Source: a virus (lineage: Duplodnaviria; Heunggongvirae; Uroviricota; Caudoviricetes). From it: a stretch of DNA of 42,950 nucleotides. The notes below the pieces were generated by a model. That model did not search any database. It was not told where the DNA came from and was given only the letters and a program-made list of their open reading frames with translations. Positions within the stretch are counted from its first letter, which is position 1, and each line of letters opens with the position of its first letter. Below, in pieces: positions 5,931 through 37,232 of this stretch. The stretch lies in IMG/VR virus record IMGVR_UViG_2870479586_000005; one strand, 5' to 3'. A program made the translations under genes and the position numbers.

Positions 5931-6316
5931 TTTATTCCTTCTCTATTTTCACCAATTCGCGTCGCTATTGCTTCTTTAAGCTCGGCCAAGTTTTCGATTT
6001 GCGCGTCAGATGCGGTTCCGGCATCTACTGCACACTGAATTGAGAATGCCTCAATTGACAGATCGCCAACAGTCCGTAATGTAGTCTGGAGTTTTTGCGT
6101 CTGCTCTTTTTTTACAAATTTAGAAATGCTCCCATAATCCCCGCTCAGCGCTCTTTCATATAAAACCCTACCGTGTTCCTCGCAATCATTTTTCATTGCG
6201 GTGAATGGAATGTCGTTTCCAATCCCGTCAATATCGCAAATAATATTTATAGATAACCCATGCTCGTCATTAAAAACAGGGTTTGTTATTTTTCTAAATG
6301 AATCAACACTTATCAT
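5927..6316 (-). CDS. tail fiber assembly chaperone (gpG/Tfa-like)
   Basis: 129-aa ORF immediately downstream of the tail fiber gene with 1-nt overlap. Confidence 0.5.
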   Translation of the reverse strand: MISVDSFRKITNPVFNDEHGLSINIICDIDGIGNDIPFTAMKNDCEEHGRVLYERALSGDYGSISKFVKKEQTQKLQTTLRTVGDLSIEAFSIQCAVDAGTASDAQIENLAELKEAIATRIGENREGIK

Positions 6317-7500: not shown

Positions 7501-8119
7501 TTGGCCCTATCTCCACATTTAAACTAACAATTGGTGAGCCCGATATATATAGCCCGCCGTTAATTTTTACACCGCCGTCGCCGTCTGCTGGGACGTTTAC
7601 GCCTATTTTCGCGTAAGGTGTACCGGCTATAAAAAACTCACCATCGACACCCGTTTCGAAATTTATTTCCTTTAATAATGAACGACAATTTTTTGCATCA
7701 AATATTTGCGCTATAAATGTATTCAATAGCTCTAAATCTAACCCTATACTTTTTAGCAGATATATTTTAATTGCGAATGTATACGGGTCGTCCCTGGGCG
7801 TGGCTTCAAACCACTCTCTCATTTTGCTCTCAAATCCCACCGTTAATAATGCTCGTTCGACGGCACCACGCGTGCCGCGATGTTTATTTTGCCAGGCTGC
7901 GGCCTTAATAATTTCGCGTTTTTGCTGCTCGCTCCAGTCGGGGTTCCAGTAGGTGACCGCGTACTCCCACGCCAGCCACGGCAACAGATTTGCAGGGCAC
8001 AAATCGGGATTTTTAATAATTCGAATATCGCCAGGCAGATCGCCGACGTGAGATAAAACAACCTCAAGCGCCCTCTCAGGGGTTATTGCGTTCGGAGGCA
8101 GTACGCTTTGACTTGTCAT
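7493..8119 (-). CDS. baseplate/tail protein I (gpI-like)
   Basis: 208-aa ORF between J and the fiber gene, as in the P2 V-W-J-I-H order. Confidence 0.6.
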   Translation of the reverse strand: MTSQSVLPPNAITPERALEVVLSHVGDLPGDIRIIKNPDLCPANLLPWLAWEYAVTYWNPDWSEQQKREIIKAAAWQNKHRGTRGAVERALLTVGFESKMREWFEATPRDDPYTFAIKIYLLKSIGLDLELLNTFIAQIFDAKNCRSLLKEINFETGVDGEFFIAGTPYAKIGVNVPADGDGGVKINGGLYISGSPIVSLNVEIGPNG

Positions 8120-15069: not shown

Positions 15070-16643
15070 CAGTTACCTCCCCAGCCGTTATCGTTGGTAT
15101 TTGAGGGGTGAGATACAGACCATGACGGTTCGCTCAGCCCCATTTCACGCCGGCGCTGAATTTCGTATTCCTGCTGCTCCATAACCTCCTCGTAATCCTG
15201 TCCCTGCAGCGCCAGTTCGTTCTGATACGTGCTGAGGCCAGTTGTGATGCGCATGGCGCTCTCCTGAACCTCTTTCAGCCCATCAATCGCCATGCGACCA
15301 GCGCCGATCCAGAGCGCGTTCGTCCAGGAGTTCCGCGCCTCATAAAACGACCGGACAGCTGAGCGTGGCAGGGTGATAATTCCGCGTGCCAGCGCCTCTT
15401 CAAACCAGCAGCAGAACATCAGCGACGCCTGTCGCGCGGCGATAAAACGTCGACGCCCCATGAAAAATCGCCAGCTGACGTTAGCACTGGCCCGGGCGCT
15501 GGAGTAACTGACCTGGCTGTAGTCCCGGCTAAGTTCTTCGTATGACGCGCCAACGCCAGCTGCAACGTAACGCAGGAGTGATTTTTCCAGTGAACTAAAA
15601 CCAGCATCAGCATTCTGAGCGGTCTGTAAACTGAGTTTGTCGCCGGGATGCAGGTGGGGAACTTTCACACCACCGAGCTTGATATTTGCGCCGTTGTAGT
15701 ACGTCACGTAACTCTGAATAAACGAATTCAGCGGGTTCGAGTCGATATCAGTACCCGCGCCGGCGATATATTCAAACGCCTGCTGGCTGTCGAGCTCTGA
15801 TTCGATTGTCGCGGCATACATCGCCTTCACAATGGCGCTCTGCAGTTGTGTTTGCTGCAGTGTGTCGAGCATTTTCAGGCGCTCCATGACGCTGTAAAAA
15901 ATATTGTCCCCGCGGGTCTGTCCGTCCTCGAGCGGCTCGAATATGTGGATGAATGCGTGTCTGCCGCTGCTGAGCTGTGCTGGGATACGCCGGCATTTAC
16001 CGACTCCGCCGAGAGGGTAAGTATCCTCGGCTATCCAGTACCCGACCGCGGCCCCGTTTTTATCGATATCAACACCGGCGCGGCGAAATTGAGTGTCAGC
16101 TGCGTAACCCGGATTTCGAATCCGTTTCGGTGAGACCATTTTGAATCGCGTCCGAAAAACGCTGCCGGCACTACTCTCCCATACTGGTTGTACGCAGGTT
16201 TCACCGTTGAAAGCGTGAGTAGCCACGCCCTCGCGGATCATCATTGTGAACGTCCGTTTCCGCTCGATATCAATCGTGCAGTGAGGGTCCTCGGCGTATT
16301 CAGTCCACGCTACCTCGACGTCACGCGCCAGCGCCCTGGCGTCCTCGCGAGATATGCCGAGGTAACGCCAGTTAGGGCGATAACTCAACTTAAACAGATT
16401 GCCGACGATATGATCCTGGTGCAGCTGCACGGCGTTCGACGCGACGCCGTTATTGCGAACGAGATCGTCTGCTCGCGCGTTACCGCGATAAAAATTCGGC
16501 AACAGTGCTGCGTCGGCGCTCTGCTGTGGTGCGTTCCAGTCAATCAGCTGGCCACCGAAACCGGGACCGCCGCCGTTATACCCCGCGTAACGGCGTAGTG
16601 GCGTTTTACCGTCAGGCCCGAGCAGCTGCTGCGGAGCAGTCAT
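15069..16643 (-). CDS. portal protein (lambda gpB-like)
   Basis: 524-aa ORF; extensive resemblance to lambda B (LLGPDG...YAGY.GGG.GFGGQL..., FTMMIREGVA.HAFNGE, QSAIVKAMYAATIESELD, WIGAGRMAIDGLKEVQE). Confidence 0.9.
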   Translation of the reverse strand: MTAPQQLLGPDGKTPLRRYAGYNGGGPGFGGQLIDWNAPQQSADAALLPNFYRGNARADDLVRNNGVASNAVQLHQDHIVGNLFKLSYRPNWRYLGISREDARALARDVEVAWTEYAEDPHCTIDIERKRTFTMMIREGVATHAFNGETCVQPVWESSAGSVFRTRFKMVSPKRIRNPGYAADTQFRRAGVDIDKNGAAVGYWIAEDTYPLGGVGKCRRIPAQLSSGRHAFIHIFEPLEDGQTRGDNIFYSVMERLKMLDTLQQTQLQSAIVKAMYAATIESELDSQQAFEYIAGAGTDIDSNPLNSFIQSYVTYYNGANIKLGGVKVPHLHPGDKLSLQTAQNADAGFSSLEKSLLRYVAAGVGASYEELSRDYSQVSYSSARASANVSWRFFMGRRRFIAARQASLMFCCWFEEALARGIITLPRSAVRSFYEARNSWTNALWIGAGRMAIDGLKEVQESAMRITTGLSTYQNELALQGQDYEEVMEQQEYEIQRRREMGLSEPSWSVSHPSNTNDNGWGGN

Positions 16644-21496: not shown

Positions 21497-22081
21497 TCAT
21501 TCCTGCCCAGTGCGGGAGTATGTTTCGCACCAGGTGGAACGAGAAACAGACAACATTCCAGCTAGCGCAGATCCGGCCATCTCCTTAAAATCCTCGCGTT
21601 TATTTGCTGCTGCGACCGCCTGCACGGACAACCACACCAACGAAAGCAGGCGCTTGACTACTTTTCTCTGAGTTGACGCAGAGATGTTTCCTTTATAGCG
21701 ACTCCAGACAGCCTCACAAATAGCTGTTTGGTGTTTGAACGCCAGGTTACCACCGTAGCAATAGCGCAACCACGCCTGCTGGCTAACGTCGAGCGCGTTC
21801 ACAGCGCGGCGCCACGATGAATCAGCGAATTCAAAATCATTCATCGGCGGCGCGGGGCGACGTCTGCTGAAACTTTCCAGGGCATAAACTGGCGTAACCA
21901 GAGCATCAACGGTCCGGTCCTCCAGTTGCACACGATGAATATGTTTGCGTGGGTATGCGTTTTTATCTGCTGGCGGGTGCTCACACAATGCTTCCAGTTG
22001 CCCCTTAGAACCACCAGACAAATCCCGCAATGCAGCGCGCAGTTTTATGCGGGTATATTCCAATAAATACTCGTTACTCAT
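21497..22081 (-). CDS. putative late-gene regulator (antiterminator Q-like by position)
   Basis: 194-aa ORF immediately upstream of the lysis genes and downstream of nin-like genes; no sequence motif recognised. Confidence 0.4.
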   Translation of the reverse strand: MSNEYLLEYTRIKLRAALRDLSGGSKGQLEALCEHPPADKNAYPRKHIHRVQLEDRTVDALVTPVYALESFSRRRPAPPMNDFEFADSSWRRAVNALDVSQQAWLRYCYGGNLAFKHQTAICEAVWSRYKGNISASTQRKVVKRLLSLVWLSVQAVAAANKREDFKEMAGSALAGMLSVSRSTWCETYSRTGQE

Positions 22082-22374
22082 CAGATAAACTCCTCATCGC
22101 GCCAGATAGCCAGTGTTCTGAAAACTCCCTCAGCGTGCATCAACAGCAATGAGTCGTGCTCGTAATCCGTTTTTGTACGTCCGTCGATAGCATCGTGACA
22201 CGCACTACAGGCGATAGCGCCCTGCATATCGTGAGGTTTGATGGCTGTGCCGCACGTTCCGGCGAGACGATAATGAGCCAGTACGCTGGTTTCAGGATTG
22301 TGATTGCACACACCGGGGATACGCACAGTACAAGCGCGACCACGTGCAGCTTTTCTCAGGTCGATTTTTTTCAT
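22081..22374 (-). CDS. YbcO-like protein (DUF1364)
   Basis: 97-aa ORF; KAARGR.C.VRIPGVCN.NPETSVLAH.RL.G.CGT..KP.D...AIACSACHD.ID.RT motif recalls DLP12 YbcO. Confidence 0.7.
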   Translation of the reverse strand: MKKIDLRKAARGRACTVRIPGVCNHNPETSVLAHYRLAGTCGTAIKPHDMQGAIACSACHDAIDGRTKTDYEHDSLLLMHAEGVFRTLAIWRDEEFI

Positions 22375-22967
22375 GATGTGTAATCCAGCAGCTGCGCGGC
22401 GGCATTTTCAGCGGCCTCCTGAGAGGCAAACGTGCGGAACAAAATATAATTCCACAGCACATCTAAAACGGCTGAATACAGTTGACCGAACTCAAGATCG
22501 TCCATCGCAGCAAACGAGATTGAACGAGGTACGCGCATCAAACTGCCGTCTGGCATCTGATGAACGTCATAAAACCCAGCTTCCATAATCGCCCATGCGC
22601 GAAACGCCTCGAACGACTTCACCGCACTGATATTCCCCGCGCGCTTTTCCGACTCATCGAGAAGATACTGATCAGCCAGCTCTGCCATGACATCACCGTG
22701 TCCACCGTAATACGCCAGTAACTTAACGTAGCCATGGACCAGTTCGCGCTCCGCAGGAGAAATAGCCCCTCCGGACGGATGCCAGTAATCAAAGCCCAGG
22801 TTTAGAAGTGAGAAAAATTTACGATGAAACGCGGGATTACGCGCCTGTTTGAAATCTGCATACACAACAGCACCTGGTTTGACTCGTTCAGTCAACCAGC
22901 GTTGCGTGTCTGGTGTCGCGGGTATTAGCGAACCGCCGGATACCCTGATAAATGAATGCTGCGCCAT
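22371..22967 (-). CDS. DUF1367-family phage protein
   Basis: 198-aa ORF, coupled (4-nt overlap) to the YbcO-like gene; family assignment from recall. Confidence 0.5.
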   Translation of the reverse strand: MAQHSFIRVSGGSLIPATPDTQRWLTERVKPGAVVYADFKQARNPAFHRKFFSLLNLGFDYWHPSGGAISPAERELVHGYVKLLAYYGGHGDVMAELADQYLLDESEKRAGNISAVKSFEAFRAWAIMEAGFYDVHQMPDGSLMRVPRSISFAAMDDLEFGQLYSAVLDVLWNYILFRTFASQEAAENAAAQLLDYTS

Positions 22968-23044
22968 GTTTAACTCCAGGTGGCGCGGCAGTGTTCAGAA
23001 AATGGTGCCGGGTGTTCAATCCAGCACCGATATTATACCGTGTT

Positions 23045-23224
23045 TTACGCGTCAGGGGGTGTAATAGTATATCCAGCTATTTCTGCCAACTCGAGAAACG
23101 CCATCAGGCTGGCAATCCGTTCATCATCAGTCAGAACACGCACACCAACGATGTGTCCGTCCTTACGCTTGATAACAGCCCGGCATGTTTCCGGTAGTTC
23201 GCCTATAGATTCTTGAATATTCAT
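23045..23224 (-). CDS. small hypothetical protein (59 aa)
   Basis: ATG at 23224 preceded by an AGGGGG Shine-Dalgarno; below the ORF-track length cut-off. Confidence 0.25.
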   Translation of the reverse strand: MNIQESIGELPETCRAVIKRKDGHIVGVRVLTDDERIASLMAFLELAEIAGYTITPPDA

Positions 23225-23375
23225 GTCTTCCCCCTAACGCCATTGCCTGTGCATTTATACAGTATTTTATGGCATTTGTCATAACGCCAGATACAATGAG
23301 GGAATAATGAACAATTATATTCACGTCGTGAATTTTATTAAACGGTTTTATAGGGGATTAAACCGTTTATGGTCA

Positions 23376-24017
23376 TTATTTATCACTCCTGTAAATTGAA
23401 ATTAACCATTTTCTAATCGTCGACGCTGCAGGTGGGTCAGAGTATTTCGCCACAAAAATACCGGATATGTATTGCACACCACGCGATAATGGCGCTGTCG
23501 GGTTTTCAGTAAAAAAACGATCAGCCAGTTCAATGGCTTCGCTTTTTAATCTGTGCTGTGGCCGTCCTCCGCCCTTAGTGCCAAGGTAACGCGCCAGTTG
23601 TTTGAAACGGTAGGCGATGATTAACGGTCGCATCATCATATTGAAAAAATCTCGGGCATCGTTGTCAGCGCCTTGCGCTATCAACAGTGCAAAAAACAGA
23701 TACGGGATTGTGTACACTTCAGGAGATATACGAACCCGTTCACAAGTTGGTGGAGCCAACTCAATAAGTAAGTCAGCCAGCGGATCCCCCTTTTCTCCAT
23801 GTTTGTAATAGCGATACAGAGGCCCGATATCGAGTTCACTCACGTCAATTTCAGGATGCCCGGCAACGGTTGTACGTATCTCTTCTGCCAGAGCGTCAAA
23901 TATTACCCCGGTCCGCTCAAGATAGAGCCTCCGGGTCGAACCGCGATCATCCAACGCCCGTAACATATCTAACCGGCTTACGAAAGTTTCAGGCCAGTCC
24001 TCATAGAAAGTTTTCAT
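23376..24017 (-). CDS. hypothetical protein (213 aa), accessory island
   Basis: Track ORF 23376-24053; internal ATG at 24017 has a GAGGT Shine-Dalgarno 5 nt upstream, so the upstream extension is probably not translated. Confidence 0.5.
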   Translation of the reverse strand: MKTFYEDWPETFVSRLDMLRALDDRGSTRRLYLERTGVIFDALAEEIRTTVAGHPEIDVSELDIGPLYRYYKHGEKGDPLADLLIELAPPTCERVRISPEVYTIPYLFFALLIAQGADNDARDFFNMMMRPLIIAYRFKQLARYLGTKGGGRPQHRLKSEAIELADRFFTENPTAPLSRGVQYISGIFVAKYSDPPAASTIRKWLISIYRSDK

Positions 24018-24088
24018 AATTACCTCGAATAATAAAAACTGCATTATTTGCACAATTTATTATTCGTTTTCACATCGCAGGGTTCTAT

Positions 24089-24115
24089 AAAAAAGAAAAC
24101 CCGCCGAAGCGGGTT
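24089..24115 (-). terminator. rho-independent terminator
   Basis: Hairpin AACCCGC-CGAA-GCGGGTT followed on the minus strand by TTTCTTTTT, 20 bp after the stop of the 92-aa gene. Confidence 0.55.
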
Positions 24116-24135
24116 AGTTAATAAGTTACACCAGG

Positions 24136-24414
24136 TTATGAGGCCATACCGTAAGCTTTTTTATGCATCCCATGGTCATAGCCCATATTATATGCTTCAA
24201 AAGCATCTTTATGACGGACATGCCCAGCCTGGCTTTCGGGTAAATCACCTAAAACAGAGTCATCAACCGCACGCGGAACGCCGATTAATGCATGCCACAT
24301 ACCTTTATCATAGGCACATCCACAACACTTGTGCCGCCCAACGTTACCCTGATTTGCAGAAAGAACATCAAACATACTGTCGTGACGATGTGACTTTTTA
24401 CAGATGTGTTTCAT
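24136..24414 (-). CDS. hypothetical Cys/His-rich small protein
   Basis: 92-aa ORF (CKKSHRHD...HKCCGCAYDKGMWH...) with its own downstream terminator; weak Shine-Dalgarno. Confidence 0.35.
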   Translation of the reverse strand: MKHICKKSHRHDSMFDVLSANQGNVGRHKCCGCAYDKGMWHALIGVPRAVDDSVLGDLPESQAGHVRHKDAFEAYNMGYDHGMHKKAYGMAS

Positions 24415-24882
24415 TCATTGACCTATATCATTTTCGGTAATGAATGCTTTACACGGGATCCCGGTTGAGGTAATCTCCCAAACCGAGATCTCAACGAAAG
24501 CATTAACCGATGTTTTTGTATGGCCCTGACAGTTGGCGCTGTCAGGGCTTTCCCTTTGATGCGACTCTAAAAACTTCGCAACCTCCAGATCCTATCCAGG
24601 ACCAAGAAAAACTTCAATGAAAAGATCAAGTTAGATCTGTATTTTTTTACAGATGTAATAAATCACACATGTAATAGCCTTCCCTTTCCGTTCTCATCTG
24701 GCCTCTTGTGGCATCCATTTTTTTAAGAAACATATGGACGCCTAAAAAACCACTAATGTCATGATTATCATGTATGTTTTTACTGGAAACATTGAGCCAT
24801 CCACAATGCAGCGTAAAAAGCAAGCAATTCACAAGATTTTAAAGTGATTTATCTGGAAGACTTTACTACTAACAGTTAATAT

Positions 24883-24927
24883 CGTACCAGAAGTGCAGAA
24901 TTTGCACTTTCACAGGAAAGTGGTACG
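24883..24927. promoter_or_regulatory. nested palindrome / candidate operator upstream of the peptidase gene
   Basis: CGTACCA (24883-24889) pairs with TGGTACG (24921-24927); AGTGCA (24892-24897) pairs with TGCACT (24903-24908); lies 55-100 bp upstream of the ATG at 24982. Confidence 0.4.
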
Positions 24928-24981
24928 GAACATGTTGTCTATATTTCGACCAACAATCGTAATGCAGTAACTGGAGGAGCT

Positions 24982-25470
24982 ATGGCTACCAACCCAAGAG
25001 AGCACGCCCGGCGAGTGCTGGACACGTTCTGGTGCGGGCGTGGTTTCCCTGTTGATCCAGCGAAAATTGCTCACGACATGGGATTAGATGTTTTTATTAC
25101 CGATCTTCCTGGGAAAGTTTCTGGCGCACTGATTAAACAAAAAGATCAAGATCCAGCGATCTTTCTAAACAGTGATGACAACAAAGTTCGTCAACGTTTT
25201 TCATGTGGGCATGAGTTGGGGCATTACATCGCCCGGCAAGCATCGCATAGTGATGAATATGAGTACGTTGATTTACGTGGCGAAACCGCAAGCGCCGGAA
25301 CGCATCCTGATGAAATTTTTGCGAACAAGTTCGCAGCAGAACTTCTGATGCCGGTTGATGAGGTCAGAAAACTGCACGCTGACGGCCAACCAAGTTATAT
25401 AATGGCGCATTATTTTGGCGTATCTGACGATGCGATGACTTATCGTTTAAAGAACTTGAGGTTGGGGTAA
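24982..25470 (+). CDS. ImmA/IrrE-family Zn metallopeptidase (HExxH)
   Basis: 162-aa ORF; HELGHY motif within a DUF955/ImmA-like context; GGAGGA Shine-Dalgarno upstream. Confidence 0.75.
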   Translation: MATNPREHARRVLDTFWCGRGFPVDPAKIAHDMGLDVFITDLPGKVSGALIKQKDQDPAIFLNSDDNKVRQRFSCGHELGHYIARQASHSDEYEYVDLRGETASAGTHPDEIFANKFAAELLMPVDEVRKLHADGQPSYIMAHYFGVSDDAMTYRLKNLRLG

Positions 25471-25479
25471 CGCTTTAGA

Positions 25480-26085
25480 ATGCCATCGGATGACGATTTT
25501 AACAGCCGTTTCAAACAGGAAGTTGCACGCCGACTGAAGGATTCCCTCAACCTACACCGTCAGTTAGCAGAAGAGGTTGAGCCGGAGGACGATGAAACTC
25601 CGGTTCAGTCCCCTGATGAAACTTCACCTCTGCAAAAGATTTCGCACGACCCCAAAAAACCATCTGTCCGTATTCACGGAATAGCCAGAAAAAGAGCTGC
25701 CGAAGCTCGCAAAATGGCTGTAGCTGCGTCTAGCAAAAGAACTCCAACTGCTACACCATCTCAACAAGTCACCCGTACTGAGAGTAAAATCTTGACCGAG
25801 TTCACATCTGTGAAACAGGTGAGTTCACTTGATACCGAGCATGAGCGCAAACAACTCAACAACAAAGATTTTGAAGCTGAAATCGCTCTAAAAAAACGCT
25901 ACGGAAAATGGTTCCTGATAATCCTTGCTTGCCAACTTCTGATAATGAATGGGGTATTTATTGCCGACGGCGCAGGTAAGCTGGAATTTGAGGATTTAAC
26001 ACTACAGTTGTACATGGGCGGTACTTTGACAGAGGTATTCGGCCTCGTGCTGGTCGTGACAAAATACCTTTTTAAACGCAAGTAA
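25480..26085 (+). CDS. membrane protein with charged N-terminal region and two C-terminal TM helices
   Basis: 201-aa ORF starting 10 bp after the peptidase stop; C-terminus WFLIILACQLLIMNGVFIA and GGTLTEVFGLVLVVTKYLF are hydrophobic helices. Confidence 0.65.
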   Translation: MPSDDDFNSRFKQEVARRLKDSLNLHRQLAEEVEPEDDETPVQSPDETSPLQKISHDPKKPSVRIHGIARKRAAEARKMAVAASSKRTPTATPSQQVTRTESKILTEFTSVKQVSSLDTEHERKQLNNKDFEAEIALKKRYGKWFLIILACQLLIMNGVFIADGAGKLEFEDLTLQLYMGGTLTEVFGLVLVVTKYLFKRK

Positions 26086-26509
26086 CTCTCTCGGTCCAAC
26101 AGTCTTTCGAAAGCCCTGATCAAAGGGCCTTGATAAATTAGCAGTGCGTTGAAAACAGATAGTTATTCCCATCAGTTCCAACGTAATACACATCAAAAAA
26201 ATCACCATTCTTTTGCTCTACGTCAACACCTACCCTTAAAAAAATAATTCTCCAAGAATGAGAAAGTTATTGTGTGTATTAGATAAGATATGAGCTGACA
26301 CATCTATGGCGTGGAGCCAAACCTAATATGACAGTCCGCTCTGTGCCAAGAGCGAACATTACAAACACACTAAAATTTATGTTTGTACTTCGCTGTAGCC
26401 ACCTAAAAGTATTATTGCGGGTGGTTTCGTGACAATGTTAGATATTCTTCATTTTGAATTGATTACTGAATTAAGATAAAACCACCCGAATTAAAACTAT
26501 CAAAAGTAT

Positions 26510-27391
26510 CTATGGTTGTTCATCACTCTCTTCTGAAAGTATTTGTACTACTTGTCCACACTCTCCACATACTACGTGTAATTGACTATCTTCTTCGGAC
26601 TTGAAAATCTCACTAACTAAGCTATGACAGTTAGGGCATTTTATCTCGTTATCAAAACCTATGAATTTAAGGAATAAGTTTTGAATTAATGAAACTGCAG
26701 TGCAAGTGAGTATAAGGCAAATTTTAGCGTCAGGAATGTTTTTGTTTGAAGAGTGCACCGTCTCTGCGGAAAAATCCCATGCAGACTCAATCGTTGAGCG
26801 GCAATATTTTCTGAGACTTGAGTTTCGTTTTCCTGCGGCATACAACCCAATAATAATTCGGCAAATATTTTTAAAGTCAGCTGCTTTAATATTTTCTTTT
26901 TTTAATATATCCTCATGAGTTTTATAAAGGTGAGCAGCAAGCTCAACCATGCTCTCTCTACAAGTTAGTCCAATACTTTGAATATCTTCAGGGGCCTTAA
27001 TATTATTCAGAGCAACAGCAGAAGCATTTAACCTCCGGCTAATAGAACGAAGCATATCTATATCTAAAGGTAACTCATCAATAACATGTTTGAAATCATT
27101 GCTATGTCTTGCTTGTAGTCTTTGAGTTATACCCAAATGAAAAGAATATGCTTCATCAGCAGAAAAGAAAAACTCATTTTGAGTGTATAAGTTTAAAGGA
27201 ACGTTTTCACCTTCAGCAACCCACCAGTTACCATCATTTTTTGTTCTGACGTTCCAAATGTTAACCTCAAAACCTAAATCATTAAATGTTTGCTCAACTT
27301 GCATGTTTTTTATGTTTTCTATATTTTGAGTTTTTAAATATTCAGTAATTCTTTTCTCAGCATCGATTCTGTATTCTGGTGTCATGTGCAA
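26510..27391 (-). CDS. hypothetical protein with C-terminal zinc ribbon
   Basis: 293-aa ORF in AT-rich DNA; C-terminal CPNC...CGEC four-Cys motif. Confidence 0.55.
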   Translation of the reverse strand: MHMTPEYRIDAEKRITEYLKTQNIENIKNMQVEQTFNDLGFEVNIWNVRTKNDGNWWVAEGENVPLNLYTQNEFFFSADEAYSFHLGITQRLQARHSNDFKHVIDELPLDIDMLRSISRRLNASAVALNNIKAPEDIQSIGLTCRESMVELAAHLYKTHEDILKKENIKAADFKNICRIIIGLYAAGKRNSSLRKYCRSTIESAWDFSAETVHSSNKNIPDAKICLILTCTAVSLIQNLFLKFIGFDNEIKCPNCHSLVSEIFKSEEDSQLHVVCGECGQVVQILSEESDEQP

Positions 27392-27449
27392 TCCCTTTTA
27401 ATAAGATACTAAAAGTAAAAGCGCATTATAGCATAACACATACAATGCG

Positions 27450-27695
27450 TTAATGCGTATGCTTGTGCCCTGTAATGATTTCAAAATGAACGTTTGCATA
27501 CAACTGTTTTTTGATCTGGTTGTATTGCAACAGAATGATTTCCACTGCTCGTTCATAGCTGATCTTCAGTTTAGTTAGCATGTCCGTTCTGTGCCTTTTA
27601 AGTTCATTCTTGCCATACTTAGCCGACTTGAATGCTATTTCTTCTATCACTTTTTTAGTTGGCATATTGGGGCTAGAGTTCCGTTCCTCGCTCAC
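27450..27695 (-). CDS. small hypothetical protein
   Basis: 81-aa ORF (GTG start in track) just upstream of the 293-aa gene; start uncertain. Confidence 0.3.
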   Translation of the reverse strand: MSEERNSSPNMPTKKVIEEIAFKSAKYGKNELKRHRTDMLTKLKISYERAVEIILLQYNQIKKQLYANVHFEIITGHKHTH

Positions 27696-27862
27696 GGCAG
27701 ACCTTAAGCTCAGTTAGTTCGTCTGCTCCGTGCCAGAGCGAACGTTGTAAACACAACATTGCTTTAGTCGACAGGGGCCAATAGGCTACTGCGTACCCTG
27801 TGCTAGAGTAAGTATCAAATAGGTATTATCCATGTATATGACTGCTCGATGATGCATCATAA

Positions 27863-28942
27863 TCACAAACGTTCATGATCAAGACTGTTTTCATCATTAT
27901 TTAAGTCATTAAGCATTTGAAGTGCGTCACGAGTACGTTCATAATTACTTTCAGGGTATAATCTAAACTTCATATTTTCCAAATTAATTAATTTTCTTTT
28001 TAATTTGAAGGAATCGTTAGAAAGTGACATTTCGTAAAAATCAATATCCCCCTGTCTGGATTGTAATGCACTCATAACGGAAAACTTAGCAGATTCTTTG
28101 AACCTCAAACCGAATGTAACATCGCTTAACCGAAATGGTGAGTTCTGTAAACCTTGATTATTAATAACTCGATATTCATTTTCATATTTCCAAGAAGGAG
28201 CTTTGCTGAGAAGAATGACCCTATCAATCTCTTTTTTGGCAGTATTCTTTATATTATCATTGCTGCCAAATAACATATCATGAACTTGTTGAGTTCTAAT
28301 AAATCGATTCCCTTTGTAATCAACTGGATGGATATCTAAAGAGTCATTTTCAGAAGTATCATATCCAATACAAAATCCCTTATGTTGATCAGCATAATGC
28401 GACCACATTAAGGGGCAGTTAAATTTTCTTGCTAATGAAAGAACACCAACCTCATAATTTTTTAGCAAGTATCTTTTAATATAAAAACTGGCGCTAGCAT
28501 AAAAATCATCACCATAATTATCAACATCCCACGAAATATTATCAATTAATTTTCGAGCTTCGCTTTCACCTAGCATTTCAATTTTCTCTAATGTCCTTAG
28601 ACCTTTATATTTAATTTTTTTTGCTGCTTTCGCTAGTTCCTTTTGATGATTTTCTTTTACTAATTTATGAAGGATAGAGTTCAATTCATTGACATTATTG
28701 ATGTCGTTTAACACGGAAGGATTACAATCCAAAGGGTCATTGAATGTTGTTGGATCAGCAAAATACAGTCTATCGCTTACAAGCAAGTCAAGACTATCAA
28801 CACTAAAGCTTTTATATTTATATAATCGAGAGGGAATATTCTGTATCATCACTTTTATCTCATAAATTTTTTTGATATTATCTGCCAATTCTAGCCCCAT
28901 GGGCAATAGCAAAATCGAAAAATACTCTCTACGTAAGGGCAA
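27863..28942 (-). CDS. DUF2971-like protein (candidate defence-associated)
   Basis: 359-aa ORF in AT-rich DNA; RLYKYKSF...LYFADPTTFNDPLDC...PLMWSHYADQHKGFCIGYD...KYENEYRV motifs recalled as DUF2971 hallmarks; start may be at an internal Met. Confidence 0.5.
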   Translation of the reverse strand: MPLRREYFSILLLPMGLELADNIKKIYEIKVMIQNIPSRLYKYKSFSVDSLDLLVSDRLYFADPTTFNDPLDCNPSVLNDINNVNELNSILHKLVKENHQKELAKAAKKIKYKGLRTLEKIEMLGESEARKLIDNISWDVDNYGDDFYASASFYIKRYLLKNYEVGVLSLARKFNCPLMWSHYADQHKGFCIGYDTSENDSLDIHPVDYKGNRFIRTQQVHDMLFGSNDNIKNTAKKEIDRVILLSKAPSWKYENEYRVINNQGLQNSPFRLSDVTFGLRFKESAKFSVMSALQSRQGDIDFYEMSLSNDSFKLKRKLINLENMKFRLYPESNYERTRDALQMLNDLNNDENSLDHERL

Positions 28943-29514
28943 GCCCTTTCCCCATGGATATTCATCAAATTAAGCGGGTGTACTTAGGTCATATTGACCT
29001 GTTCCTAATTGACGATACACCTCGATGTTCATTAAGCCACTTAGAGTGCTGAGACAGATATGAACTGCAGCTTTTCGCTCACTGCTGCCCTTCAGTAAGC
29101 GAAAAAATGCCTACTCGGTGCCATATACAGTCATGGTTATTAACTACAGGGAATAATTCCACACTGAAATTAAATGTCTGCCTTTTACAGTAGAAATAGT
29201 TTCTCCAGGACACTATCCATTGCCGGGCACAATCACTCGGGGTATAACGATATAAAATATGTTCATGATAGTGCAGGTTCGTATATTAAGTTCAGCAGCG
29301 AAAACATGCCTTACAGGTTTCCGGTTTTGGGAGCGTCGTTACAGGATCCTGCGCATACCGTTCCCATCTGTTGAATTAAAGGTTTCACAGCCTTTGCCGA
29401 TATCGCCTTTTACCTTGCCTGTGATGCGTTCAGTGCTCAGCGTTGTTTACTGTAGCTCTCGGAACTGATTACAGACCGCGTCTTAAAAACCAATCCTTAC
29501 TCTAAAGGGAATTC

Positions 29515-30438
29515 ATGAGATTAAAATACTCAGTACTCTTACTCGCCATTGCCCTTACAGGCTGTGATAACAAAAAAGATGAGATCGGTTGTTCTTCGGA
29601 AATGACCCAATCAGCTCTCATGGATTTATTAAAAAAATCTGCTTATGAAGGACTCTCTGAACAGGTCGATAAATACCCTGATGTCACTAATCAGACCAAA
29701 CGAAGCACACTGGACAAGATCAAACTAGCCGTCTCTGAAATCTCCACAACATCAAGTGACACGGGCAGCACAATGAAAACTTGTGAAGGGACCGTGACGA
29801 TGACTCTACCTGCGAACGAGTACGTCCAGCTTTCAGATGCTTACAGAAAGAATTTTAATCGTAATCTCGACAAGCAAATGGAAAGCCTGTTTTTGGAGAA
29901 CAACGCAAACGCCTTTTCCAAACGTATCACCTACACCGTGCAGGCGACCGACGATCAGAAAAACGTTTTTGTAAAAACCTCTTCTGATAATCCGATATCA
30001 GTGGGCGCCGCTTTACTGACATCACTTTCTATTATCAACCCGATCGTTGAGCAGCAGAAAATCCAGCAGGCTAAGGATGCCCAACAGAGCCAAATTGAAG
30101 CGGAACAACAGGTGCAACTCAGGGCGCAGGAACAGGCTAAGTATGAGGCGGAGAAGCAAATAGAGAGACAGGCACAACTTCAGCCACAAAAAGCTGACAG
30201 CCTTGATCAGTCCCGAATGGCATTTGCGAATGCCGACTCTGATTTGAGTACCGTCTGGAGCAAGTTAACCCCGGCGAAGAAAAAAGATTTGCTGCCTTCT
30301 CAGCGTCAGTGGATCAAAACTAAGGATGCTATGTGCGGTAAAGTTTCAATGCAGGGAACAGATGCTGAAGTCAAGAAAATGCTCGACTGCCAGACGCAAA
30401 TGACCCTTTCAAGAATCGCTTTCCTCAGAAACCAATAA
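29515..30438 (+). CDS. lipoprotein with C-terminal LprI/DUF1311-like domain
   Basis: 307-aa ORF; signal peptide plus lipobox (LLLAIALTGC); Gln-rich coiled region; C-terminal QRQWIKTKDAMCG...KMLDCQT...RIAFL resembles lysozyme-inhibitor LprI-type domains. Confidence 0.65.
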   Translation: MRLKYSVLLLAIALTGCDNKKDEIGCSSEMTQSALMDLLKKSAYEGLSEQVDKYPDVTNQTKRSTLDKIKLAVSEISTTSSDTGSTMKTCEGTVTMTLPANEYVQLSDAYRKNFNRNLDKQMESLFLENNANAFSKRITYTVQATDDQKNVFVKTSSDNPISVGAALLTSLSIINPIVEQQKIQQAKDAQQSQIEAEQQVQLRAQEQAKYEAEKQIERQAQLQPQKADSLDQSRMAFANADSDLSTVWSKLTPAKKKDLLPSQRQWIKTKDAMCGKVSMQGTDAEVKKMLDCQTQMTLSRIAFLRNQ

Positions 30439-30458
30439 CTGAAGTTTCCTTCAAGCTG

Positions 30459-30492
30459 GCGCCAGGTGTTAACCTGGTGCCAGCTTAGTCAT
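30459..30492. other. strong stem-loop downstream of the lipoprotein gene
   Basis: AGCTGGCGCCAGG-tgttaa-CCTGGTGCCAGCT, 13-bp arms with one mismatch; not followed by a clear U-tract. Confidence 0.5.
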
Positions 30493-30515
30493 CAAGTGCA
30501 TATTTAACTGTTTTA

Positions 30516-30588
30516 TATGGGCGGTACTTTGACAGAGGTATTCGGTCTCGTGCTGGTCGTGGTCAAATACCTTTTTAAACGCAAATAG
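30516..30588 (+). repeat. orphan direct repeat duplicating the 3' end of the membrane-protein gene (26011-26085)
   Basis: About 73 bp near-identical to 26011-26085, including the stop region, but with no gene body upstream. Confidence 0.8.
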
Positions 30589-30612
30589 AGTATTTCCACC
30601 CCAAACAACCTG

Positions 30613-31401
30613 TCAAAATGCTGAATCAGCAACAGATACAGCCGACTTTTTCCCCATTACCATCAATTTATCCAGTGTCATACTTCGCAGATTGTCGCTG
30701 TGGATCACCAGATACCCTGCCCGCTCAGCGATCTCTTTGAAAGCGTCAAAGGTCATCAGATGTTCGCCTTTGGCAACATGGCGCATCCTTGTCACTTTTC
30801 CATTTTTGATAGTGGTGATAAAAGAAAAATCCGGAATGGTTGGCTGATTTTCATCGAGTAGCAGGCAGTGGATGTATTCAATCGCCTCTAACATTTGCGT
30901 CTGTGACAGTTGTTCTATGTGAGAGACGGCGAAGCGTTGATGAATCATGGTGTAGGCATCGGGATACATCATGCCTTTCTTACCGACCAGCATATTAACG
31001 GCATCACGTAAGGGAGTACGGTCATCGGTAGTTGTACTCCGCCTCTCTGGGCGCTGGCTAAAATAACAATCTTCAAGCTTTTCGAAAACTTCCCAAGCCT
31101 GTTCTGTTTCCAGCATTTTGGCATGGCGAGCTGCGCCGCGTTCTGTCCAGAGAATGAGGGATCGGGTATGTTTAGCAACTGACTGACTATCTGTCAGTCT
31201 GTTTTTGAAGTCGCGTAATTCATTACCTTCCAGCTTAAAAAAATGCTTTCCTACGACAAATCTGGCGATGTTGCGCTTGAAGTTTTGCTGGATACCATTT
31301 ACTTCCGTGCCATACAAACTGGCAAGCAATTCAGTAGTGATGACGGGAAGTTGGTTATGATGTAGCGGAGAAAGGGATTCCGCAGATATTTGGATTGTCA
31401 T
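30613..31401 (-). CDS. phage antirepressor (AntA/ORF6N-type N-terminus)
   Basis: Track ORF 30613-31449; ATG at 31401 has a GAGG Shine-Dalgarno; antirepressor-like character judged from recall. Confidence 0.6.
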   Translation of the reverse strand: MTIQISAESLSPLHHNQLPVITTELLASLYGTEVNGIQQNFKRNIARFVVGKHFFKLEGNELRDFKNRLTDSQSVAKHTRSLILWTERGAARHAKMLETEQAWEVFEKLEDCYFSQRPERRSTTTDDRTPLRDAVNMLVGKKGMMYPDAYTMIHQRFAVSHIEQLSQTQMLEAIEYIHCLLLDENQPTIPDFSFITTIKNGKVTRMRHVAKGEHLMTFDAFKEIAERAGYLVIHSDNLRSMTLDKLMVMGKKSAVSVADSAF

Positions 31402-31431
31402 CGCAGTGGCCTCACTTAGTGTTTTTTTCAT

Positions 31432-31462
31432 CACCACCAGCGACGCCAATCATCTGGTGGTG
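31432..31462. promoter_or_regulatory. perfect 9-bp inverted repeat (candidate operator of the antirepressor gene)
   Basis: CACCACCAG (31432-31440), 13-bp spacer, CTGGTGGTG (31454-31462), immediately upstream of the antirepressor start codons. Confidence 0.45.
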
Positions 31463-31673
31463 AACTGTGCAGGGTTGGCGTAACCGGCTAAGTGAACCCG
31501 GCGCTTCCGCAGAAGCCCCCACACAGCCCACCATAATGCGAATGTGGCCGTGCCTAACACATAAAAAAACCGCTAACGCGGCTATGCGTCACTTAGATAT
31601 CCGGGACGCCAATCCCGGCAACCGATTTTGCGGCTGCGCGGAAACTATAGCCCCGGGCTTTTTCTAAGTCAAT

Positions 31674-31895
31674 TCAATCAACTTCAAACCTCCGGTGTTC
31701 ACATTCCATACACTCAACGGGAACATCATCGCGATGCAAGTCCACATATCCGACCCGCTTATACAACTCAATAATGTCCGGTAACGTGACCAGATGTTTT
31801 TCCGGTTCCAACACCTCAGCCCTGGTTACTTTGTAATCTGAAATATAGAGCACTATCCGCCCGTTCCGTGGTAACTCCAGTTTATCGCCAAACAT
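31674..31895 (-). CDS. hypothetical protein
   Basis: 73-aa ORF in minus-strand early region. Confidence 0.3.
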   Translation of the reverse strand: MFGDKLELPRNGRIVLYISDYKVTRAEVLEPEKHLVTLPDIIELYKRVGYVDLHRDDVPVECMECEHRRFEVD

Positions 31896-32082
31896 GTCCT
31901 TTCCCTCCGGGAAACCAATGATATTGACGATATTACACCCACAACGATTCGTTTTACGTCACTCCGCAATCACCATACATACGTACCAATCCGTACATTC
32001 CCACCACAAAAATGGCATTCGGCGGGCACTGGTAATGGATTTTTAACGCGTGCTATTGCCTTGCGACGTATTTTCAACTCAC

Positions 32083-33297: not shown

Positions 33298-34689
33298 TTA
33301 AAATGGGTCCGTATTAAAGTTTTTGTTTGAATACCGTTTTTCACGTTTTCTCGGTTGCTCTGCCTCCTTCTGGATGCGTAATTTTTCGCGTGCTACGTGT
33401 TGATCAACTGGCAGGAAATGCCCATTCCGGAATTCCTGATAAATAATTTCACCTGCCCCGCCAGAACGGTTTTTACCGATAATCACCTCGGCGATACCCT
33501 TTGCAGGTGAATCAGGTGTGTAAACTTCATCGCGGTACAAAAACAAAATGCTGTCAGCGTCCTGCTCAACACTGCCGGAATCGCGCAGGTCCGACATCAC
33601 CGGGCGACGCTGGCCAGCAGGTCGAGAATCCACCTGGCGGGAAAGCTGGCTAAGAGCAAAAACAGGGGTATGCAGACGCATGGCCATAGTCTTCATGTTG
33701 CGGGAGATATGCCCGACAGCGAGATCGTGGCGCTCGGCCTTCGGTTTTTTGATCAGGCCCATGTAATCAACACCAATCAACTTCAGGTGCGGATAACGGC
33801 GTTTATGAGTCTCTGCAATGGCGCGGATCTGCTCAATCGTCAAATCAGTGGCATCAACAATCCAGATATCGCGATCCTGCATGATTGCAAGCGCGGCGGT
33901 TAATCTGGTCAAATCCTCATCGTCCATTTCTTTTGGATTACGCAGACGCGACGTGGACATATTCCCAGCCCCGGCAACGGTACGTTCAACAATCTGCTGA
34001 GCGCCCATTTCCATGCTGAAAAACAGTGCGCCGCCGCCATCTGCGGTAACGCCATCGATAATCTTCAGGGTAAATTCCGTTTTCCCCATGCCTGGACGAC
34101 CGGCAACCACAACAAGGTCGGTCATGTTGATACCGCCCAGGGCGACATCCAGATCCTCGACTCCGGTTTTCAGCATCATTTCCTGCGCGTCGCCAGACAT
34201 CCGTTTATCAACGGTGTCAATGTAGAGCGGTAACAGCTCTTTGATGTGTACCGGCTGGACTGTGCCGGTAGCGGCGCTCATATCCAGCACCTGAGCAACA
34301 TGAGATTCAATAACCTCATCACGCTGACTCTGGTTTACAGCGTTACGGATACCATCCGCGCCAGATTGCAACAATGCCGCCATTTTGCGGCTCCGCCATG
34401 CCCGCACCATTTTCCCGGCATAGCCTTTCAGATTCGGTACCGTTGCCGGGATCCGGGATATTTGAGACAGATCCGCAAGGCTGGAACCGCCCAGCGCTTC
34501 GCTGATAAACAACATGTCGATCATGCCGTTCGCCAGTGCCTGCTTTTTGATTTCGCTGAAAGCGCGACGGTGAAACACGATGCTGAAGGCTTCCTCCGGA
34601 GTAGTGGCAATCACATCAAACGCGTCAGGCGTCGCGCCACCGTTAATCAGACCAGCGAGAACGATCGCTTCCAGTTCTTCTGGATTCAT
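33298..34689 (-). CDS. replicative DNA helicase (DnaB-like)
   Basis: 463-aa ORF; Walker A GRPGMGKT, Walker B-like IWIVD context, DnaB-type C-terminal motifs; follows the O-like gene. Confidence 0.85.
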   Translation of the reverse strand: MNPEELEAIVLAGLINGGATPDAFDVIATTPEEAFSIVFHRRAFSEIKKQALANGMIDMLFISEALGGSSLADLSQISRIPATVPNLKGYAGKMVRAWRSRKMAALLQSGADGIRNAVNQSQRDEVIESHVAQVLDMSAATGTVQPVHIKELLPLYIDTVDKRMSGDAQEMMLKTGVEDLDVALGGINMTDLVVVAGRPGMGKTEFTLKIIDGVTADGGGALFFSMEMGAQQIVERTVAGAGNMSTSRLRNPKEMDDEDLTRLTAALAIMQDRDIWIVDATDLTIEQIRAIAETHKRRYPHLKLIGVDYMGLIKKPKAERHDLAVGHISRNMKTMAMRLHTPVFALSQLSRQVDSRPAGQRRPVMSDLRDSGSVEQDADSILFLYRDEVYTPDSPAKGIAEVIIGKNRSGGAGEIIYQEFRNGHFLPVDQHVAREKLRIQKEAEQPRKREKRYSNKNFNTDPF

Positions 34690-36818: not shown

Positions 36819-37232
36819 ATGAGGATGAAAAATTTGATGCTTAGCGACCGTTTATCTCAAAGACGCAAACAGCTTGGTCTAACCCAACAACAGCTTGCTG
36901 ATATGGTTGGAAGATCGAGTGTGAGCGTTTTTAAATGGGAAAGCGGACAAAATGAACCAAAGGGCCAGAACTTGTTGGCTTTGGCCAATGCACTCAAGTG
37001 TTCTGCCACATGGCTGCTTTTTGGTGACGAAGACCAGGCGCCAACTCCGGTAGACGAATTACCAACAGAGCTGGATTCACGTCAAAAAAGATTGTTAGAG
37101 TTATTTGATTCATTACCCGAGTCAGAAAAAGAAAAGCAACTAATTGAATTAGAAGATAAAGTTGAAAACTTTAATCGTTTATTTGAAGAGTTACTGGTTA
37201 CCAGAAAGAAACTAACCCCCACCAAAAAATAA
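36819..37232 (+). CDS. XRE-family HTH repressor (CI analogue lacking S24 peptidase domain)
   Basis: 137-aa ORF; HTH (LTQQQLADMVGRSSVSVFKWESG) then a coiled, acidic C-terminus; no Ser/Lys autoprotease motifs seen. Confidence 0.7.
   Translation: MRMKNLMLSDRLSQRRKQLGLTQQQLADMVGRSSVSVFKWESGQNEPKGQNLLALANALKCSATWLLFGDEDQAPTPVDELPTELDSRQKRLLELFDSLPESEKEKQLIELEDKVENFNRLFEELLVTRKKLTPTKK

Follow-up and report, generated by a model that had tools for sequence, protein, structure and literature searches.

A modular accessory locus with a variable, probably defence-related cargo slot in a lambdoid Escherichia coli prophage

The prophage locus and its variable slots

We analyzed an AT-rich stretch at positions 23230-31500 of the IMG/VR virus record IMGVR_UViG_2870479586_000005, whose full length of 42,950 nt is called the window below. 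The whole window is a lambdoid prophage with its late genes and early-right operon on the - strand, and the stretch is part of this lambda-like Escherichia coli prophage. From left to right, the locus contains a LexA-boxed gene for a 59-amino-acid (aa) protein, a 225-aa open reading frame (ORF), a second LexA-boxed unit with a 92-aa gene, an ImmA/IrrE-type peptidase gene (ImmA) paired with a gene for a transmembrane (TM) protein, a gene for an unannotated 291-aa protein, a DUF2971 gene, a gene for an LprI-domain lipoprotein (LprI), and an ORF6N-domain antirepressor gene behind isrK and C4 RNAs. An original prediction, made from the sequence, had described an accessory island of candidate exclusion or defence modules. 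We found that the center of this island is a slot that related prophages fill with at least seven different sets of genes.

The early operon extends from the DnaB-type helicase gene (33298-34689) across small ORFs to the DUF1367, DUF1364(YbcO), and Q genes (21497-22967) and then to holin and terminase genes. The island lies between the helicase gene and the DUF1367/DUF1364(YbcO)/Q group, in agreement with its predicted location between a nin-like region and the replication genes. Immunity is Rac-type: the region contains Cro/YdaS-like and YdaT-like genes and encodes a 137-aa repressor (36819-37232) that consists of an HTH_3 domain alone, without an S24 cleavage domain.

The island differs from the rest of the window in composition. 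Its GC content is 0.412 over 23230-31500 and 0.354 in the core (26108-29113), compared to a mean of 0.499 (standard deviation 0.033, minimum 0.44) in 287 intervals of 3 kb outside it, and GC content at third codon positions (GC3) is 0.25 in the DUF2971 gene and 0.26 in the 291-aa gene versus ~0.5 in neighboring genes. The ImmA (24982-25470), TM (25480-26085), and LprI (29515-30438) genes are on the + strand, while all other island genes are on the - strand, like the early-to-late operon. Terminator-like sites are in mild excess (12 versus 7.3 ± 2.5 in shuffles), and there is one real repeat, an 81-bp direct repeat. Thus, the lower GC content, especially at the center, the genes on both strands, and the hairpins and repeats were all borne out. 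The limits stood in part: the island is real, but about 23040-31672 describes it better, because 23230 and 31500 cut through functional units. The LexA box at 23247-23262 serves the gene at 23045-23224, and the C4/isrK RNAs and their promoter reach 31672. Insertion of an insertion sequence (IS) or integrative element as the source of the AT-rich core was ruled out, as the window contains no transposase, integrase, or terminal inverted repeats.

To place the locus among relatives, we used 5426 complete E. coli genomes, searched by megablast, and Logan contigs, whose relatives carry L numbers. The flanks were found in hundreds of the complete genomes at 96-98% identity, and 431 genomes carried the ImmA-TM pair, but no genome covered 80% or more of the stretch and none contained the core (26400-28950), for which the sole matches were six arrays of clustered regularly interspaced short palindromic repeats (CRISPR). 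Eleven Logan contigs have the same arrangement; one of them, L003, is 99.99% identical over 23001-32000. Megablast against phage records returned one partial relative alone, vB_EcoM-705R4, covering the left 2.2 kb.

Related prophages keep a common frame, with ImmA-TM on one side and the LprI and ORF6N antirepressor genes on the other. Between them lies the first variable slot (slot 1, 26108-29113), which corresponds to the AT-rich core; blastn against relatives placed its left edge at 26107 or 26354-26361 and its right edge at 29064-29114, 30317, 30576, or 30672. In the window, slot 1 holds the DUF2971 and 291-aa genes. Between the same flanks, L058 carries PD-T4-3 (E 1.7e-137) with a DUF6650 gene; L010, the PADLOC candidate PDC-M25A/B (an AAA_21 ATPase and its partner); L011, the PADLOC candidate HEC-08/DUF3644 with an integrase fragment, ETEC_3214, and a 269-aa gene; L059, genes for an SMEK_N protein, a methyltransferase, and a 450-aa protein; L001, a 134-aa gene, a T5orf172/MUG113 GIY-YIG gene, and a 65-aa gene; and L002, like L012, a gene for a 232-aa protein. 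PD-T4-3 of L058 is the validated defence gene among these, and the other cargo matches are to candidate families only.

The truly variable part of the locus is this ~3 kb plus a second slot of 0.6 kb (slot 2, 24116-24719, also delimited by blastn against relatives). The prediction that the island is accessory and varies across related prophages therefore holds for its core, which is absent from all 5426 genomes. What would have spoken for ordinary prophage content, the same genes conserved in relatives with normal composition, was seen in the flanks: the 225-aa gene, ImmA-TM, LprI, and ORF6N genes are kept in hundreds of related prophages and are near-normal in composition. A variant of the same prophage, L005, joins 24208 straight to 26197 and hence lacks ImmA-TM.

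The 81-bp repeat (26004-26084 and 30507-30587) is 90% identical between its copies, and the homology stops exactly at a stop codon. The right copy, on the + strand between LprI and ORF6N, corresponds to the final 27 codons and the stop codon of a TM-type gene, left over as a 3′-end remnant, and is also present in L001 and L002. It is likely a scar of the recombination that brought the slot and LprI, and it would be a plausible homology anchor for cassette exchange.

Other traces of remodeling were seen in relatives. Some E. coli relatives (H41-H48) have IS1 or ISEc52 insertions in the slot, and L011 has a truncated tyrosine-integrase gene (5675-6277), which suggests that several mechanisms remodel it. 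Members of the 134-aa family (MSGWKESFTLAEQIQLALNLGYEAVPD...; L001 5966-6370, L006 5231-5635) are found beside the GIY-YIG/T5orf172 gene in one E. coli relative's slot and beside a homologue of the 291-aa gene in a Providencia chromosome. This family matched nothing in Pfam or PADLOC and is possibly a further cargo unit that shuffles.

The window has five sites with perfect matches to natural E. coli type I-E CRISPR spacers, all with an AAG or ATG protospacer-adjacent motif (PAM): in the DUF1367 gene (22827-22859), ImmA (25190-25221), TM (26036-26067), DUF2971 (28720-28751), and LprI (29515-29546). Imperfect matches fall at 2234-2262, 8082-8105, and 15220-15248. Arrays with matching spacers are in L013, L014, L073, and L074, and, of the spacers in strains 2014C-3061 and OkiPb01683, the four closest to cas2 all hit this prophage, DUF2971 cargo included. 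This pattern looks like real, possibly primed, adaptation against this phage. That spacers with correct PAMs match ImmA, TM, LprI, and DUF2971 shows that this cargo traveled on an infecting element.

The two genes of the AT-rich core

The DUF2971 gene (27863-28849, - strand) encodes a protein of 328 aa from the start MIQNIPSRLYKY that we classify as PDC-S31, a predicted ADP-ribosyltransferase (ART)-fold single-gene defence candidate. The protein matches Pfam PF11185 (E 9.1e-11; 43.4 bits, cut-off 22) and PADLOC PDC-S31 (1e-50) and is also represented in PHROGs (phrog_1762). Its model has an ART fold, nearest to DarT and Tpt1, in which the conserved Tyr and the ExE motif are present and residues 53-130 form large helical inserts. 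Among 634 homologues, which reach 83% identity in Serratia and Klebsiella, the residues FNDPLD (36-41), CPLMWSHY (145-152), and Y222-E223-x-E225-x-R227 are invariant, in agreement with the published placement of DUF2971 in the ART superfamily with an ExE motif (PMC12522546).

The gene stands alone: its neighbors differ in E. coli, Citrobacter, and Serratia, and its orthologues lie in variable islands. No antitoxin-like gene or macrodomain partner was found beside it, and the protein did not match the Pfam DarT family at E ≤ 0.01. We ruled out DarTG, given the missing Pfam DarT match and the absence of an adjacent macrodomain antitoxin (DarG) gene. Because of its family, motif, stand-alone context, and lack of an antitoxin-like neighbor, we file the gene as a DUF2971/Aristaios-type candidate. 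Aristaios is a single-gene DUF2971 system of lactococcal plasmids with an abortive anti-phage phenotype in Lactococcus (PMC11381338). The window protein would be a DarT/Tpt1-like NAD-dependent ADP-ribosyltransferase that is inactive before infection; upon infection, it would modify nucleic acid, or an essential protein, and the infection would be aborted, as proposed for Aristaios.

The second core gene (26510-27385, - strand) has its own promoter-like site (27453-27425) and encodes the 291-aa protein, a member of an unannotated family. The protein comprises an N-terminal domain (N-domain, residues 1-91), which is a novel domain, a helical HEPN-like bundle (110-241), and a C4 zinc ribbon (C250, C253, C273, and C276). 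We collected 306 homologues, all of them without a Pfam domain. Identity reaches 93% for Providencia and is ~60% for Vibrio, Shewanella, Burkholderia, and Pseudomonas; among species representatives, it is 50-58% in Bacteroidota and 33-35% in Firmicutes, and mean column identity across phyla is 67%. At the DNA level, 26324-27559 is 87.7% identical to a Providencia chromosomal islet. In nearly all loci, the GC content of the gene is below that of the host contig.

The surroundings of the gene vary. No conserved partner of the family was found: of 110 neighbors, at most 3 share a Pfam family. The 134-aa gene beside the Providencia homologue was rejected as a partner, as tblastn showed that it is absent from the window. 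Defence genes are often its neighbors, including type IIG restriction-modification, IetAS, DRT9, PDC-S02, PDC-S21, and type IV restriction endonuclease genes and, in Vibrio, genes for SIR2, an ADP-ribosyl toxin, and reverse transcriptases. Because attC-like repeats lie on both sides of it in Stutzerimonas, Aliivibrio, and Marinobacter, the gene is a predicted integron cassette in those genera. That integron cassettes carry defence systems is known from references cited in 10.64898/2026.03.17.712381. Around the window gene, inspection by eye recognized no attC remnants.

Does the bundle belong to the canonical HEPN proteins? We found no support for this. The Rx4-6H catalytic motif is absent from the bundle, where the conserved residues are R143, E144, S145, R192, W203, H211, D219, and K221; the RLQARH string of the protein is part of a disordered linker (89-94), and conservation does not extend to H94.

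When only the N-domain served as the query, an exhaustive search recovered 100 representatives of 35-521 aa, stand-alone forms included. In one, P0350, the N-domain (39% identical over 83 aa) is fused to a TIR domain (E 6e-50 to AbTIR); P0352 also has a TIR domain downstream of the same N-domain, and P0333 combines the N-domain with a C-terminal region that contains an RNQLEH motif. Immune sensor-effector proteins usually show this pattern, a common N-domain joined to effector-type domains that can be swapped. Since the same N-domain is followed by TIR or a canonical HEPN motif in relatives, the 291-aa protein may be a sensor-effector defence protein, with a sensor-like N-terminal domain, the HEPN-like bundle, and the zinc ribbon.

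We also offer, tentatively and with more doubt than confidence, a wider reading in which the gene represents an undescribed family of single-gene immune proteins. These would pair a sensor N-domain of ~90 aa (W..V.T..G.WWV..P.NLY.Q..F.S.D.A.SFH.GL..R) with interchangeable effectors and would have spread between phyla in integron cassettes, in defence islands, and as prophage cargo. On this tentative view, the effectors would be a non-canonical HEPN-like bundle in the window protein, TIR in P0350 and P0352, and the RNQLEH-type C-terminal region in P0333, often capped by a zinc ribbon. Two high-GC relatives of 509-521 aa (P0344 and P0354) have the same N-domain, bundle, and zinc ribbon, and in addition a long C-terminal extension with a SEC-C-like CPCGS...C.HG motif at its end.

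We also considered whether the two core genes form one system. This was ruled out: they are linked in this prophage only and are apart elsewhere. Between them lies an 81-aa ORF (27450-27695, - strand) with a GC3 of 0.49, compared to 0.25 in its neighbors. It straddles the homology edge at 27559 and matched no entry in any family library scanned. Given these three properties, it is doubtful that this ORF is a real gene.

The ImmA-TM cassette and the island edges

The ImmA gene (24982-25470, + strand) encodes an ImmA/IrrE-type M78 zinc metallopeptidase of 162 aa that consists of the peptidase domain only, with an HELGH motif (Pfam Peptidase_M78, PF06114, 7.7e-18). It also matches the profiles for PADLOC capP (2.4e-25) and RmrA, and the nearest solved chain by sequence is CapP (7t5t). 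Its partner (25480-26085, + strand; phrog_5346) is a 201-aa protein with a charged, low-complexity N-terminal 150 aa, a TM helix at ~144-164, and, by hydropathy, a second hydrophobic stretch at the C terminus. The TM family is confined to Enterobacterales (48 clusters).

The 162-aa M78 gene is always directly upstream of the TM gene, with a gap of 4-12 nt, also at three other prophage positions: beside the integrase gene in prophages of Klebsiella and of E. coli, and, in a Serratia prophage, between the antiterminator gene and the lysis genes. Because the pair recurs at these three other settings, we take it to be a mobile two-gene cassette in typical moron positions. A helix-turn-helix (HTH) partner, fused or adjacent, was absent, as the neighbor is the TM protein in four of four contexts; the 77-aa ORF upstream in L002 has no Pfam match. 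Our best guess is that ImmA-TM would be a protease-controlled membrane effector or a toxin-antitoxin-like exclusion pair. At 24884-24926, 55-100 nt upstream of the ImmA start, are nested inverted repeats, AGTGCA-GAATT-TGCACT (24892-24908) inside GTACCA...TGGTAC, which look like an operator.

Left of this cassette are two LexA-boxed units. The motif CTGT-N8-ACAG occurs twice in the window, where 0.45 sites are expected, and both sites are inside the island. LexA box 1 (23245-23264; TACTGTATAAATGCACAGGC on the - strand) is 22 nt upstream of the 59-aa gene and overlaps the -10 element of an ATGACA-17-TATAAA promoter. The box (core 23247-23262) matches the consensus at 15 of 20 positions, and 12 of 12 related loci retain its CTGT/ACAG, although their spacers vary. 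The 59-aa gene (23045-23224, - strand; phrog_340, 1.6e-20) is kept in all relatives and is a candidate SOS-controlled small antirepressor; its product and the C-terminal part of the ORF6N antirepressor share 34% identity across 38 aa (E 8e-6). In Gifsy prophages, LexA-controlled small antirepressors act on RacR/DicA-type repressors (PMC3121763). The Gifsy model is the likeliest for the 59-aa gene because the prophage repressor lacks a cleavage domain, and the protein is probably an SOS antirepressor for a non-cleavable repressor.

The 225-aa ORF (23376-24053, - strand; 213 aa in RefSeq relatives; phrog_5215, 7.6e-147) is kept in relatives and had no match in Pfam, PADLOC, NCBIfam, or PDB. Beyond it, slot 2 is here a self-contained SOS unit on the - strand, with LexA box 2 (24635-24654), a hairpin (24522-24549), the 92-aa gene (24136-24414; phrog_3941), and a terminator (24098-24115). 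L002-type relatives have a different, 77-aa gene on the + strand instead, and LexA box 2 is present only in loci with the 92-aa gene. Searches of Pfam, NCBIfam, PADLOC, and PDB likewise returned nothing informative for the 92-aa, 59-aa, and TM proteins. The hairpin is very strong, with a 12-bp stem, seven GC pairs, and a T-rich tail on the + strand, and lies between LexA box 2 and the - strand 92-aa gene; its candidate roles are a structure in the 5′ untranslated region, a + strand terminator, or the end of a small RNA.

On the right side of slot 1, the LprI gene (29515-30438, + strand; phrog_5094) encodes a 307-aa lipoprotein with a signal peptide, an LTGC lipobox, and a C-terminal LprI/DUF1311 domain (Pfam LprI 3.2e-7). 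This moron is kept in most relatives and lost in L010, L058, and L059. Next is the gene for an AnrP/Ant-like ORF6N-domain antirepressor of 262 aa (30613-31401, - strand; Pfam ORF6N 9.3e-22; phrog_4792 anti-repressor 2.5e-163). Its regulatory leader (31412-31672, - strand) has a promoter-like TTGACT-17-TATAGT (31672-31644) and three Rfam matches on the same strand: c4-a1b1 (31650-31598; RF03163, 52.9 bits, gathering score 46.7), isrK (31637-31563; RF01394, 80.4 bits, gathering score 50), and C4 antisense RNA (31538-31453; RF01695, 74.5 bits, gathering score 45). A 40-aa upstream ORF (31534-31412, - strand) ends 11 nt before the antirepressor start (ATG at 31401). By these matches, the right edge is an isrK/C4 RNA-orf40-antirepressor module with the layout of Gifsy-1 isrK-orf45-anrP (PMC4825925) or P1 immI.

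Outside the island, the Q gene (21497-22081) has a 1-nt deletion at ~21513 relative to L002 and encodes 194 aa instead of 223 aa, and the near-identical L003 keeps the full 223-aa gene. Either this copy is defective in late transcription or the deletion is a sequencing error.

A probable defence and cargo hotspot, and its known counterparts

The locus is best explained as, and probably is, a prophage defence or cargo hotspot: a mosaic of independently transcribed cassettes with a slot for defence-type cargo at the center and lysogeny control at the edges. The stretch would occupy the nin position of a lambdoid prophage with Rac/YdaS-YdaT-type immunity. Related prophages would fill the center (26108-29113) with different anti-phage genes, exchanged probably by homologous recombination through the conserved flanks, and the window slot would contain two unrelated, separately acquired, AT-rich single-gene units. 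The edges would control lysogeny, through the RNA-gated antirepressor (isrK/C4) on the right and the two LexA-boxed small genes on the left.

Several predictions for the island agree with this explanation. At least three separable candidate modules had been proposed, and the DUF2971 gene, the 291-aa gene, and ImmA-TM each occur alone in other genomes. The claim that the island has no core phage functions is wrong at the edges, where 30613-31672 is the isrK/C4 RNA-small ORF-antirepressor module and small genes lie behind two LexA boxes, the prophage repressor having no self-cleavage domain. Judged by their motifs, the LexA-boxed units and the isrK/C4 module are elements of lysis-lysogeny control, not defence. 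The view of the island as exclusion or defence cargo was thus largely right as a modular accessory reading but does not extend to the edges, which serve induction control.

A number of points weigh against the hotspot explanation. What we observed is composition, modularity, variability, folds, RNA elements, and LexA boxes, from which we infer all activities. PDC-S31, PDC-M25, and HEC-08 are candidates, not validated systems; the defence-neighbor signal of the 291-aa gene is a raw listing of neighbors; ImmA has no adjacent HTH substrate; and the 59-aa protein is only weakly similar to an antirepressor domain. Finally, the DUF2971 and 291-aa genes share the strand of the early operon, so their expression in the lytic phase for the benefit of the phage itself is possible.

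This last point leads to the strongest of three alternatives, itself unlikely, in which the DUF2971 ADP-ribosyltransferase and the 291-aa protein are host-takeover or counter-defence factors of lytic growth. T4 Alt, ModA, and ModB ADP-ribosylate host proteins. That phages also use ART folds, that the DUF2971 family is in PHROGs, and that both genes are co-directional with the early-right operon on the - strand would fit this role. However, each gene has its own promoter-like site, and orthologues are found mostly outside phage genomes, on bacterial chromosomal islands and plasmids and in integron arrays. Moreover, PD-T4-3, which is known to protect the host, occupies the same slot in a related prophage, and the DUF2971 family is a PADLOC defence candidate whose member Aristaios protects cells (PMC11381338).

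Slightly less probable still is that the island is mainly lysogeny or induction circuitry, in which ImmA cleaves the Xre-type repressor of the prophage and forms a switch with the ORF6N and 59-aa antirepressors, and the AT-rich genes are incidental passengers. ImmA cleaves ImmR in ICEBs1. The M78 peptidase, the HTH_3-only repressor at 36819-37232, the two LexA boxes, and the isrK/C4-antirepressor module are as this alternative predicts, but it accounts for the island edges and not for the variable core. In addition, neither a LexA box nor an HTH gene adjoins ImmA, which is always with its TM partner, also in unrelated prophages that differ in immunity region and in the position of the pair, and the L005 variant of this prophage has no ImmA-TM.

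Least probable is that the genes are lysogenic-conversion or fitness morons outside phage defence (envelope or virulence functions) or silenced, decaying foreign DNA: the LprI lipoprotein has a lysozyme-inhibitor-type domain, AT-rich DNA in E. coli is typically silenced by H-NS, the frameshifted Q gene may mean that the prophage is decaying, and the 225-aa, 92-aa, and TM proteins have no informative homology, but the core ORFs are intact and highly conserved, as seen in the column identity of the 291-aa family and the invariant catalytic motifs of DUF2971, and the cargo of sister prophages matches defence families.

As a defence or cargo hotspot, the locus would have several uses. It defines an easily surveyed cargo slot in a prophage family that ~8% of complete E. 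coli genomes carry, ST131-type strains included. As sister phages carry validated and candidate defence genes in the slot, unannotated cargo provides good candidates for new anti-phage functions, mainly the 291-aa N-domain/HEPN-like/zinc-ribbon family and the ImmA-TM pair. The locus also places a DarT-like DUF2971 gene on an E. coli phage, and the type I-E spacers with correct PAMs are rare direct evidence for E. coli CRISPR adaptation to a temperate phage. That an apparent single island would mix defence cargo with RNA-gated and SOS-gated antirepressor switches bears on the predicted response of the prophage to DNA-damaging antibiotics.

The modules of the locus have known counterparts. At the right edge, isrK, C4, and a1b1 are in the same order as in Gifsy-1 isrK-orf45-anrP and P1/P7 immI c4-icd-ant, behind a consensus-like promoter and followed by a 40-aa ORF and an antirepressor; here the antirepressor is an ORF6N-domain protein and the prophage is from E. 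coli. In the known systems, IsrK activates and C4 represses. The 59-aa gene shares with Gifsy GfoA/GftA, 186 Tum, and N15 AntC (PMC3121763) a LexA box over the promoter of a small gene, a position downstream of the replication genes, a preceding hairpin, and a non-cleavable repressor of the RacR/DicA kind. The window differs from this type in lacking a dinI-like gene and in having a second LexA-boxed unit, that of the 92-aa gene, without a known counterpart.

Like ImmA/ImmR, CapP/CapH, and RosmerTA (RmrA), the ImmA-TM pair contains an M78/IrrE-type zinc peptidase with an HExxH motif, and its best matches are capP in PADLOC and CapP in PDB. In contrast to these systems, the window peptidase has no fused or adjacent HTH, and its constant partner is a small membrane protein. 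The window DUF2971 gene is likened to Aristaios by Pfam family, length (about 320 aa), and predicted ADP-ribosyltransferase fold, and both are stand-alone genes; the host phyla differ, and the carrier is a prophage here and a plasmid there. DarTG differs from it in having the DarG macrodomain partner and lacks the large helical inserts of the window protein.

The slot as a whole resembles the cargo hotspots of P2 and P4 and lambdoid moron loci, with which it shares conserved flanks, interchangeable cargo, AT-rich foreign composition, promoters of its own, and cargo that includes a validated system (PD-T4-3, in L058) alongside PADLOC candidates. It differs from these loci in position, between ImmA-TM and LprI/ORF6N in the nin region of a lambdoid prophage with Rac-type immunity, and in the 81-bp gene-end remnant repeat that brackets the slot and LprI. 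We met no published description of this particular slot, although no search was aimed at one. The kind of hotspot is already known, and the new members or candidates are the specific slot, the DUF2971 gene carried by an E. coli phage, the ImmA-TM cassette, and, above all, the 291-aa family.

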